Virus record (IMG/VR): IMGVR_UViG_2718217715_000009
DNA from: a virus
Taxonomy: Duplodnaviria > Heunggongvirae > Uroviricota > Caudoviricetes
Reading direction: 5' to 3' (one strand)
Length of the DNA: 48,944 nt
Shown here piece by piece: positions 42,001-45,000 of the stretch. The number at the start of each line of letters is the position of its first letter. Positions within the stretch are counted from its first letter, which is position 1. Position numbers: made by a program.

Positions 42001-45000
42001 TTCATCGCCATGCGGATGTGCTCATGTTTGATTTTCATGAATCATTTGCCTCTTGATGCTTCGGGTATGATCGTTTTCGTCATTTGGTTGCTTCATCGAC
42101 ATATTCTGCGAATAACATGACGAGCGTCGTAAGTATGTCCAATCAACATCAGGACGAAGTTCTTCACACAGGACACCACCTTTTGTTGCTCGTTCAATCG
42201 CAGGACATCTCTCAGCAGGCAACTGACGTACACCTTTGATCCATTGATTTACGCTTGGAGGAGATACACCTAAAAGCCTAGCCATTGCTGATTGCCCACC
42301 GACAACAGCACAAGCTCGTTTGAATGAATAGTTATCTTTTTTCATCGAATGAACTCCAAAAAACACACAATAATATTAGGCTTAGCCTAATGCAATTGTC
42401 AATAGGCTATGCCTAACGCTTCGAGAGTAGGTATTGCCTAATGCGATGCACATAGGAGACTATTAAGCAATGCTTAGTGGTAAAGACTTAGGCCGAGCGA
42501 TAGAGCAGGCCATTAACAAAAAAATTGCATCAGGAGCCGTCAAATCAAAGGCGGAAATCGCACGTCATTTCAAAGTCCAACCACCATCAATCCATGACTG
42601 GATTAAGAAAGGTTCGATAAGTAAAGACAAACTTCCAGAACTATGGCGTTTCTTTTCTGATGTGGTTGGTCCAGAGCATTGGGGGCTTAACGAATACCCC
42701 ATACCAACCCCATCCACTTCAGATACAAAAAGTGAACTTTTAGACATAAACAGCCTTTATCAAGCCGCCTCTGATGAAAAAAGAGCAATTGTGGCTTTCC
42801 TCTTATCTGGAAATGCTACGGAGCCTAGTTGGGTTGATCATGACGTTCGTGCCTACATTGCCGCAATGGAAATGAAGGTAGCTAACTATCTGAAAAATCA
42901 AGAATCAAAACGGAAAAGCCAGAACATCACCAAGACAGGAACTTAAACTTATATGGTCCGACGGGAAATTCCTAGTTCCCGTTAGTTAACTCCTACTACC
43001 TCTCCCACAAACCATCACCTATTAGGTCGCACCCAAATCATTAGGCGTAGCCTATTGACAAGCAATTAGGCATTTCCTATAGTTTTCCCATACCAACCCA
43101 TCCCGTCCCACACAATACAGGGCAATACCTAGAGTTACCCGGCAGTGGTCAGGGATTAAGTAGCCAGCCCGAGGCGTAAGAACATGACGGCAGGGTTCAA
43201 CTTTAACTATGCAGCAGGTTTTTGTTCCGCTACCCCGGCGTTAAGGGGATATGAGGTCAGCATGGATACTCTTGATCTTGGCAACAACGAATCTCTGGTG
43301 TGCGGCGTGTTTCCCAACCAGGACGGCACGTTCACCGCGATGACGTATACCAAAAGCAAAACGTTTAAAACCGAATCTGGCGCGCGTCGCTGGTTAGCAA
43401 GAAACTCTGACTAATGAAATCTGGTAATTAAGGAATCCTCCACGGGGGGAGAGTGGTGCACACGCGCCGGACACAAGCAAGCATCCGGCATGCTCTTTAA
43501 CAATCTGGATATCCATAACAGTAAAAATCTACAGATTGCCGTTCAGTTTTCTGGCCAACTCTTCAATAGATGGAGGTGATACGTAATCCGGATTTTTATT
43601 CATAAGAAACTGATCTTCACAGTACAGGCACCTGCTTTTATGAAAAAATTCATATTCTCTAACCGGGAATGGCTGAAGTATCGATACTATCTTTTGTCCA
43701 AAACATTTTGGACAAAGATGCATGATTATGCTGCCGCCGTTCACGGTTACCTCCTTCGAGTACACAAAAGTTCCCGACTCAAGTTGGCTAAGGATATAAC
43801 CTTCCGTCTGAGCCTCAAAGTTTTCAAATTCTGCAATTTTAGCTTTGAGAGAAGCATTTATTTCTTGATAAGTGCCCACCAGCTCAACGAGAGACACGCA
43901 TTCGCGCTGAATAGATGCAAGCTTTGAGTTCAGTTCACCAATAGCCGCATTTACTTCAGCTTGAGTTTTTGCCTCGTTCATTAGTTTTGCAATCTGGGCG
44001 GTTTCACGAATAGCCGTCATTGCTGCCGTTAATTCAGCGATCACATTCAATACTCTTATTGTTGTTGGGGATATCCAGATTAACAAGATCCTTGTTGTTG
44101 GGGAATAACGGGGACCACCTCGCCTGACGTGGTAAAAAGCAGGCACACAACACGAAAGCACACGGCGAGGTTGCTGGTTCATAGATAGCCTATCGTTAAA
44201 TTTTCGTCGACCGTGCGCTTCCGGTTGTGGCAGTCCGCGAAATGGCGCGGCGGTAAGTATGGCTGGGGTTTCCTCCATTGCTCCAGAAAATGCACCGGGT
44301 TGTCAGGTTGACCATACGCTTAAGTGACAACCCCGCTACAACGCCCTCTGTTATCAATTTTCTGGTGACATTTGGCGGTATCAGTTTTACTCCGTGACTG
44401 CTCTGCCGCCCTTTTTAAAGTGAATTTTGTGATGCGGTGAATGCGGCTAAGCGCACGCGGAACAGTTAAAACCAAAAACAGTGTTATGGGTGGATTCTCT
44501 GTATCCGGCGTTAATTGTTAACTGGTTAACGTCACCTGGAGGCACCAGGCGCTGCATCACAAAATTCATTGTTGAGGACGCGATAATGGAAACGTTATTA
44601 CCAAACGTTAATACGTCTGAAGGTTGTTTTGAAATTGGTGTCACTATCAGTAACCCTGTATTTACTGAAGATGCCATTAACAAGAGAAAACACGAACGGG
44701 AGTTATTAAATAAAATATGCATTCTTTCAATGCTGGCCCGTTTACGTCCGATACAAAAAGGATGCTGGCAATGAATACAGCATTTGCACTTGTTCTGACA
44801 GTTTTTCTTGTTTCCGGAGAGCCAGTTGATATTGCAGTCAGTGTTCACAGGACAATGCAGGAGTGTGTGACTGCAGCAACCGAACAGAAAATTCCCGGTA
44901 ACTGTTACCCTGTCGATAAAGTTATTCACCAGGATAATAACGAAATCCCGGCAGGTCTTTAAAACAGTTCCGTAATAAACATCCGATTTCATTCTTATAT

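Follow-up and report, generated by a model that had tools for sequence, protein, structure and literature searches.

The viral sequence IMGVR_UViG_2718217715_000009 from IMG/VR (48,944 nucleotides (nt), the whole of which is called the window here) carries the gene for the small RNA (sRNA) DicF, followed by the genes dicB and ydfD. We conclude that this locus is very probably the early-left ('dicBF') operon of a defective lambdoid prophage of Escherichia coli O157:H7, homologous to ydfA…dicF-dicB-ydfD-ydfE of the K-12 prophage Qin, and that it makes up a division-inhibition module. The module consists of the following parts.

44135..44358, + strand: DicF precursor region, 88.8% identical to K-12
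44359..44416, + strand: DicF sRNA (53 nt, 44359-44411) and terminator U-run, G12A allele, from Rfam and alignment to K-12
44412..44585, + strand: structured dicF–dicB spacer, or dicB leader, 174 nt, from folding, an inverted repeat and covariation
44586..44774, + strand: dicB, 62 amino acids, stop codon at 44772-44774, from Pfam and NCBIfam
44771..44962, + strand: ydfD, 63 amino acids, DUF1482, coding to 44959 and then the stop codon, from Pfam

An Rfam search of the whole window gave a single match to the DicF family, RF00039, at 44360-44411 on the + strand. With 77 bits (E = 2.2e-15) the match exceeded the gathering score of 48, and it spanned model positions 1-52 of 52. When aligned to the annotated K-12 gene, DicF occupied 44359-44411 with 52 of 53 bases identical, and the sole difference was a G-to-A change at 44370, DicF position 12 (G12A). 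The RNA folded into a 16-nt single-stranded 5′ tail and a bulged G+C-rich hairpin, followed by UUUUU at 44412-44416 (folding energy -15.9 kcal/mol, z = -2.65), and the minimum-energy and centroid folds agreed. The hairpin was not reported by a simple consensus terminator scan because its stem is bulged, but Rfam and folding do show it. A first-pass annotation, made by reading the sequence alone, had proposed a DicF match with a terminator-like 3′ end, and both the match and the U-run bore this out. Its start at 44358 was one base early, and its length of about 58 nt is reached by including the U-run 44412-44416. It was right that the sRNA escapes an open reading frame (ORF) track: the RefSeq annotation of a near-identical O157:H7 record has no dicF feature, nor was one annotated at any of the 10 DicF matches listed in other genomes. 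Annotation pipelines still leave out dicF, which was missing from all the RefSeq rows inspected.

In K-12, RNase E makes the 5′ end of DicF and RNase III makes a 190-nt form (PMC10448788); the 3′ end results either from termination, giving 53 nt, or from RNase III cleavage, giving 72 nt. The 24 bases immediately 5′ of DicF were the same as in K-12 except at 44338. By alignment, the RNase E cut would correspond to 44359, and the published 190-nt product of RNase III would start at about 44222.

DicF base-pairs with the ftsZ ribosome-binding site (PMC5069750). In K-12 its loop and 3′ region pair with this site and its 5′ tail pairs with xylR, both validated by compensatory mutations. DicF nucleotides 18-48 were identical to K-12, so that the whole ftsZ-pairing loop is kept. 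In region-restricted duplex predictions, made with the K-12 ftsZ leader, pairing with ftsZ -24..+11 had an energy of -20.7 kcal/mol for both the K-12 and the A12 alleles, with ACUCCG pairing with CGGAG. Duplexes predicted for the full-length sRNA were no better than those of shuffled sRNAs (45 of 500 shuffles for ftsZ, 64 of 500 for xylR) and were set aside as uninformative.

The 62-residue product of dicB matched PF05358 over residues 1-62 of 62 (127.4 bits; cut-off 27) and NF049927 (132.7 bits; cut-off 100), and was 89% identical to K-12 DicB. The start codon is an internal in-frame start within a 97-codon ORF (44481-44774), with the Shine-Dalgarno sequence GAGGA at 44574-44578. Seven substitutions distinguish the protein from K-12 DicB: K2E, Q36H, V47I, L55P, M56I, P57Q and A61W. 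Residues 3-35 are the same, L5 included, and four of the seven substitutions fall in the last eight residues. By published mutagenesis, the last eight residues are dispensable, L5 is critical, and K2A, K2G and K2R proteins are still active (PMC4967827). Because L5 is kept, K2 is substitutable and the C-terminal changes lie at dispensable residues, this DicB allele likely retains its function. DicB acts through MinC (PMC6832061): it binds MinC, recruiting it via ZipA to midcell, and depends on this binding also when it stops phage DNA from entering by the ManYZ-dependent route (PMC6832061).

The ydfD product matched PF07358 (DUF1482; 88 bits against a cut-off of 25) and was 94% identical to K-12 YdfD, with both cysteines kept. 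Its ATG overlaps the dicB TGA as ATGA, and Shine-Dalgarno-like sequences precede both ORFs; the overlap fits coupled translation of DicB and YdfD. YdfD has been described as a lysis protein that binds IspG. It is reported to lyse dividing cells through this binding, and DicB to counteract the lysis (PMC8835842). The earlier reading of a 62-residue DicB and an overlapping 63-residue YdfD-like protein thus stands, and its account of DicF and DicB blocking K-12 division via ftsZ and MinC agrees with the literature (PMC5069750, PMC6832061). Its label of YdfD as a membrane protein is tentative, the published description being that of a lysis protein. Two opposite-strand ORFs across the module (44447-44992, 181 amino acids; 44320-44475, 51 amino acids) had no PHROG match and were treated as spurious.

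DicF and the spacer shared 98.1% and 98.3% identity with K-12, dicB 93.1% and ydfD 96.9%; these non-coding parts of the module are therefore better conserved than its ORFs. Three or four hairpins of the spacer sit inside a closing helix, roughly 20 bp long (about 44420-44439 with 44550-44569), which includes a perfect 15-bp inverted repeat (44421-44435 with 44554-44568). The folding energy of the spacer was -69.7 kcal/mol (z = -6.08), and none of 200 shuffled sequences was as stable. In 39 distinct spacer sequences, 96.3% of the cells were paired and 17 of 38 pairs had changes on both sides. A column-shuffle control gave a mean of 7.2 and reached 17 in none of 300 trials, and slid-partner controls gave 1 to 6, but since the 39 sequences are interrelated, these covariation figures overstate independence. 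The structure appears to be genuine and conserved. From the published lengths, the RNase III 3′ end of the 72-nt DicF would map at about 44430, inside the 5′ arm of the closing helix. A 9-bp long-range helix (44213-44221 with 44449-44457), present in one fold, is doubtful: it was absent from a larger fold and would form a pseudoknot with the closing helix.

In Rac-type phages, a spacer about 90% identical follows a DicF-like hairpin that has no anti-ftsZ loop, and directly precedes kilR; the homology stops just past the 3′ arm of the closing helix. Among 49 copies of the spacer type from viral contigs, the next gene was dicB in 33, kilR-like in 8 and another ORF in 8, about four of these last preceding short hydrophobic ORFs. 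The spacer also resembles STnc100 (RF02076) in having a long closing helix, inner hairpins and a CACCNGGAGGCACCNGGC hairpin beside the 3′ arm. It covered the full length of that model but scored below threshold (29.5 bits; gathering score 47), as did the related spacers of K-12 Qin (34.4), mEp460 (40.1), Rac-SA53 (43.8) and phiSTEC1589 (30.8). With all five loci between 29.5 and 43.8 bits, membership in STnc100 was rejected.

As a hypothesis, the spacer may be a processing site or a toxin-gating leader. More specifically, it might be a portable structured leader cleaved by RNase III, a diverged relative of STnc100, that gates the translation or stability of toxin mRNAs. It could then sit between a terminator-type hairpin (DicF or DicF-like) and small toxic genes that are interchangeable; these could be dicB, kilR and the short hydrophobic ORFs. 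We put this forward tentatively and consider it rather unlikely as it stands. If it is true that the leader controls toxin expression, this would explain how phages keep such genes safely silent.

An RNA of the STnc100 family proper, above threshold at 101.6 bits, lies elsewhere in the window (32632-32798, - strand), downstream of a Q-type antiterminator gene and directly upstream of a SASA-family esterase gene. In some viral contigs (for example, L033 and L052), STnc100-type elements are found in tandem arrays with a 253-nt period.

A second, smaller possibility concerns the DicF allele. G12A places a C·A mismatch in the middle of the predicted duplex with xylR, reducing the contiguous pairs from 12 to 7 and changing the energy from -16.7 to -11.2 kcal/mol. 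Complementarity to xylR codons 3-7 was accordingly not fully preserved in A12 DicF; xylR is a secondary target and does not define the Rfam family. In 5381 of 5408 genomes, O157:H7 included, the xylR site showed conservation of 99% or more, and 310 of 3934 E. coli records had exactly the A12 allele as their best match. The change is predicted to separate ftsZ targeting from xylR targeting, so that this copy would keep division control with weakened xylose control. The A12 allele may be a paralogue that is without xylR targeting and has retained ftsZ targeting.

Upstream of the module, the immunity region and the start of the operon contain the following features.

42375..42478, strand not assigned: four operator-like palindromes between racR and ydaS, from a pattern search
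42470..42946, + strand: racR-type repressor gene (158 amino acids), analogue of cI and DicA, from NCBIfam; annotated racR in a near-identical record
43040..43083, + strand: early-left (PL, or dicBp-equivalent) promoter-like site and two palindromes, from a promoter scan and a pattern search
43262..43414, + strand: ydfA-like DUF1391 gene, first in the operon (PF07151, 103 bits; RefSeq coordinates)
43489..44134, - strand: inserted cassette of 646 bp in place of ydfB and ydfC, absent from K-12 Qin

The repressor matched the RacR equivalog NF049929 at 246.8 bits against a cut-off of 200, and the genes divergent from it belong to the YdaS and YdaT families (PF15943, PF06254). The palindrome ATTAGGC-N3-GCCTAAT occurred seven times in the window against 1.63 expected, and six of the copies cluster at two regulatory regions. 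The intergenic palindromes overlap a leftward promoter-like site, TTGACA-18-TAATAT, at 42402-42373. Rac has four RacR operators, and its PydaST has the -35 sequence TTGACA and the -10 sequence TAATAT (PMC11879457). The RacR equivalog, ydaS-ydaT, the four palindromes and the TTGACA/TAATAT site all match this published architecture, with RacR binding being predicted.

At the second regulatory region, TTGACA-17-TATAGT (43055-43083) agreed with the consensus at 11 of 12 positions and was the only + strand site in 41900-45200. Palindromes at 43040-43056 and 43065-43081 overlap its -35 and -10 hexamers. This site is the presumed equivalent of dicBp or PL, and would be repressed by RacR. The promoter scan found no + strand promoter-like site in 43084-44358. 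A second promoter between the cassette and dicF was thus rejected, in agreement with K-12, in which there is no internal promoter (PMC10448788). The first-pass annotation had placed the module under repressor control. The RacR equivalog and the shared palindromes support this indirectly, with read-through from the promoter to dicF being presumed.

In Qin, Rem relieves DicA repression, an antirepressor-driven derepression. The prophage in the window has a P22-type immI region (9517-11178) with ant, the antisense RNA sar (10397-10463; Rfam 66.7 bits) and two Arc-family genes (arc/mnt-like), as well as a second antirepressor-domain gene. Because of these, derepression of the RacR-controlled operon by an antirepressor would be plausible by analogy.

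Homology to Qin takes in ydfA (43224-43407, with 92% DNA identity of the ydfA-like gene to K-12 ydfA), continues briefly as far as 43488 and starts again at 44135; this prophage has neither ydfB nor ydfC. The 646-bp block between has one gene (43529-44044, - strand), encoding a 171-residue protein that matched phrog_1244 (E = 5e-57). About the same block of 646 bp stands directly beside cI in the unrelated phage PhiR29_1, and it therefore behaves as a mobile cassette. The protein had no matching PADLOC or Pfam model, and PADLOC gave no match for any protein of the region. In a phmmer comparison it showed a weak but specific match (E = 3.6e-7) to Rip1 (PDB 9oox_L), aligning query residues 14-150 of 171 with chain residues 28-159 of 164. 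This alignment covers about 80% of both proteins and pairs CPKC and CLYC with CAQC and CHRC. Rip1, described only recently, acts as a single protein, an anti-phage pore that recognises rings of the small terminase or the portal. The cassette product would be a distant relative, and its gene is a candidate defence gene of this family.

A reading of 249 residues for the cassette gene (start at 44278) was rejected in favour of the 171-residue form, because the PHROG match covers residues 5-156, the extension would overlap non-coding homology to K-12 and RefSeq uses 44044. PhiR29_1 annotates a longer form of the gene, so that the 171-residue start is not fully settled. A perfect 13-nt direct repeat, TTGTTGTTGGGGA, occurs at 44059-44071 and 44092-44104, 33 nt apart and just upstream of the start of this gene; it could be a regulatory site of the Rip1-like gene.

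From 89-98% identity to the characterised K-12 genes, we infer that the module is expressed and active, in the following way. In a lysogen, a RacR-type repressor on the operators over 43055-43083 would keep the operon off. Derepression, by an antirepressor or by stochastic switching as in Qin, would lead to a polycistronic transcript, from which RNase III and RNase E would excise DicF, the DicF hairpin doubling as an intrinsic terminator as in the K-12 homologue. The loop of DicF would pair with the ftsZ ribosome-binding site and block FtsZ synthesis, as it does in K-12. Transcripts that read through would carry the highly structured leader and then the translationally coupled dicB and ydfD. 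If the proteins act like their K-12 homologues, DicB would bind MinC and take it to ZipA at midcell, dismantling Z rings, and would also block ManYZ-dependent phage DNA entry. YdfD would act as a small lysis protein inhibiting IspG, and co-expression of DicB would offset its killing.

Several points weigh against an active module. The portal, capsid and tail genes of this defective prophage are split and its exonuclease gene has a nonsense codon, so that decay of module function is possible. The opposite-strand cassette of 646 bp lies between the promoter and dicF, and ydfB and ydfC are missing. Early-left transcription has to pass through a convergent gene before it arrives at dicF, with transcriptional interference possible. 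This passage is the main uncertainty on expression, and read-through from the promoter to dicF is presumed. By disrupting the validated DicF–xylR duplex at its centre, G12A may keep this DicF copy from reproducing every activity of K-12 DicF. Finally, the published active changes at K2 of DicB are K2A, K2G and K2R, while the allele here carries K2E.

The module is very common. A 701-bp segment of it matched 4653 of 5426 complete E. coli genomes, with a median of 2 places per genome and a maximum of 9, and the 53-nt DicF matched 3924 genomes. Over the 701-bp segment, the eight genomes at the top of the list, of which seven carry the label O157:H7, were 100% identical, and 251 records were at least 99% identical. 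The module is also present in phages that form plaques or are inducible (mEp460, Tritos, HannyBb and PhiR42_1). According to reviews, enterohaemorrhagic E. coli (EHEC) has four dicF copies with a role in the control of pchA and of the locus of enterocyte effacement (LEE), and the EHEC copies are expressed and functional (reviewed in PMC7873438). The module is thus already known and published: multiple dicF copies in O157 prophages have been described before, and this makes the finding itself a known one. Prophage-borne FtsZ inhibitors matter as toxic cargo, in phage resistance and in EHEC virulence control, all of which have been published for these genes. Further work might pay off only on the structured leader, which kilR loci share, on the Rip1-like insertion and on the G12A allele.

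The selected role of the module might be superinfection exclusion, through DicB and ManYZ, together with host or virulence regulation, through DicF acting on pchA, manX and metabolism, rather than division arrest. With the Rip1-like gene directly upstream, the same cassette of which stands beside cI in another phage, the early region would then be loaded with defence. DicB-dependent resistance to lambda-type phages (PMC6832061) and the published activation of pchA by DicF in EHEC, where it has expanded to four copies, speak for such a role. However, the sequence does not tell which phenotype is selected, and PADLOC had no model that matches any of these proteins. We consider this role possible but less likely than not. 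It is compatible with the dicBF operon proposed here because both DicB phenotypes need the same MinC interaction.

It seems rather improbable that the module, though intact in sequence, is a largely silent relic uncoupled from its early promoter by the cassette and by decay. The convergent-gene insertion between dicF and the only promoter-like site, the lack of any other + strand site in 43084-44358, the split portal, capsid and tail genes, and the nonsense codon in the next gene of the operon would all fit a relic. However, DicF and its terminator, the helix of the spacer, the Shine-Dalgarno sequences and the two ORFs showed no disabling change, and relative to K-12 the RNA parts have diverged less than the coding parts. 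The 100% identity of the 701-bp segment in the eight top-listed genomes, its identity of at least 99% in 251 records and the reported expression and function of EHEC dicF copies (PMC7873438) also argue against silence.

That the 53-nt element is only an intrinsic terminator or attenuator of the early-left transcript, with no function as a trans-acting sRNA, is very improbable: a G+C-rich hairpin followed by a U-run, and the hairpin with a different loop and no anti-ftsZ sequence at the same place in Rac-type loci, would suit a terminator, but 52 of 53 bases are identical to a validated sRNA, the whole ftsZ-pairing loop included, and the score is far above the Rfam threshold for DicF.

Apart from a single mismatch and a single 6-nt gap, the window was the same as a prophage of E. 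coli O157:H7 strain 4276 (99.986% identity); in that strain the integrase gene abuts potC. The prophage is lambdoid and begins with insertion sequence (IS) remnants, espN and nleL; tail, head and lysis genes follow, then a Q-type antiterminator gene and replication genes, and finally the immunity region, early-left operon and xis-int. Each of three structural genes, those for the portal, the major capsid protein and the major tail protein, is broken up into two ORFs. On these grounds, and from the nonsense codon in the exonuclease gene, the O157:H7 prophage that carries the module is defective. The exonuclease gene follows the module.

45055..47526, + strand: exonuclease gene (ydfE/RecE position of the operon), with an in-frame stop at 45574-45576

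It has 823 codons and encodes an Rv2179c-like 3′-5′ exonuclease domain. It consists of two ORFs in the same frame (173 and 632 amino acids), which matched positions 1-173 and 192-823 of the 823-position profile phrog_2082. RefSeq flags the gene with an internal stop in the near-identical O157:H7 record, and an intact version of 2472 nt is found in phages Tritos and mEp460.

Several observations were made elsewhere in this prophage. A tandem repeat at 18925-19517 (unit of 162 nt, 3.7 copies, 97% match) lies within what is annotated as a frameshifted portal gene. At the far end of the prophage, 2082-8422 holds the IS remnants together with espN and nleL, which encode type III secretion effectors; the prophage is of the effector-carrying 'exchangeable effector locus' type. 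A hokD/sok type I toxin–antitoxin locus lies at 36272-36596; its sok (36422-36596) scored 114 bits in Rfam, and hokD is annotated in the near-identical genome.

The closest characterised system is the ydfABC-dicF-dicB-ydfDE region of K-12 Qin. It has the same order and orientation of ydfA-like gene, dicF, spacer, dicB, ydfD, exonuclease and xis/int genes, and is colinear and 95% identical from 44135 through ydfE. The two differ in their immunity genes, DicA and DicC in Qin but RacR, YdaS and YdaT here, so that here a RacR-type switch, and not DicA, would govern the operon. In the prophage in the window, ydfB and ydfC are replaced by the opposite-strand Rip1-like cassette, DicF carries G12A and the C-terminal tail of DicB is altered. 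Its ydfE homologue is full length apart from the nonsense codon, whereas ydfE of K-12 Qin is cut by IS2.

The functional phages Tritos and mEp460 are colinear with this module, the downstream xis-int included, and the dicF or dicBF copies in the prophages of O157:H7 Sakai, EDL933 and 86-24 differ from it in nothing essential. The Rac kilR locus and its relatives (Rac-SA53, phiSTEC1589-Stx1c) share the early-left position, RacR-type immunity, a DicF-like hairpin and the same spacer. Their upstream hairpin has no anti-ftsZ loop and is below the DicF threshold (41.1 and 35.6 bits), and their cargo is the small division inhibitor KilR instead of DicB and YdfD. The dicB leader is thus a conserved structured RNA that the dicBF operon has in common with kilR loci.

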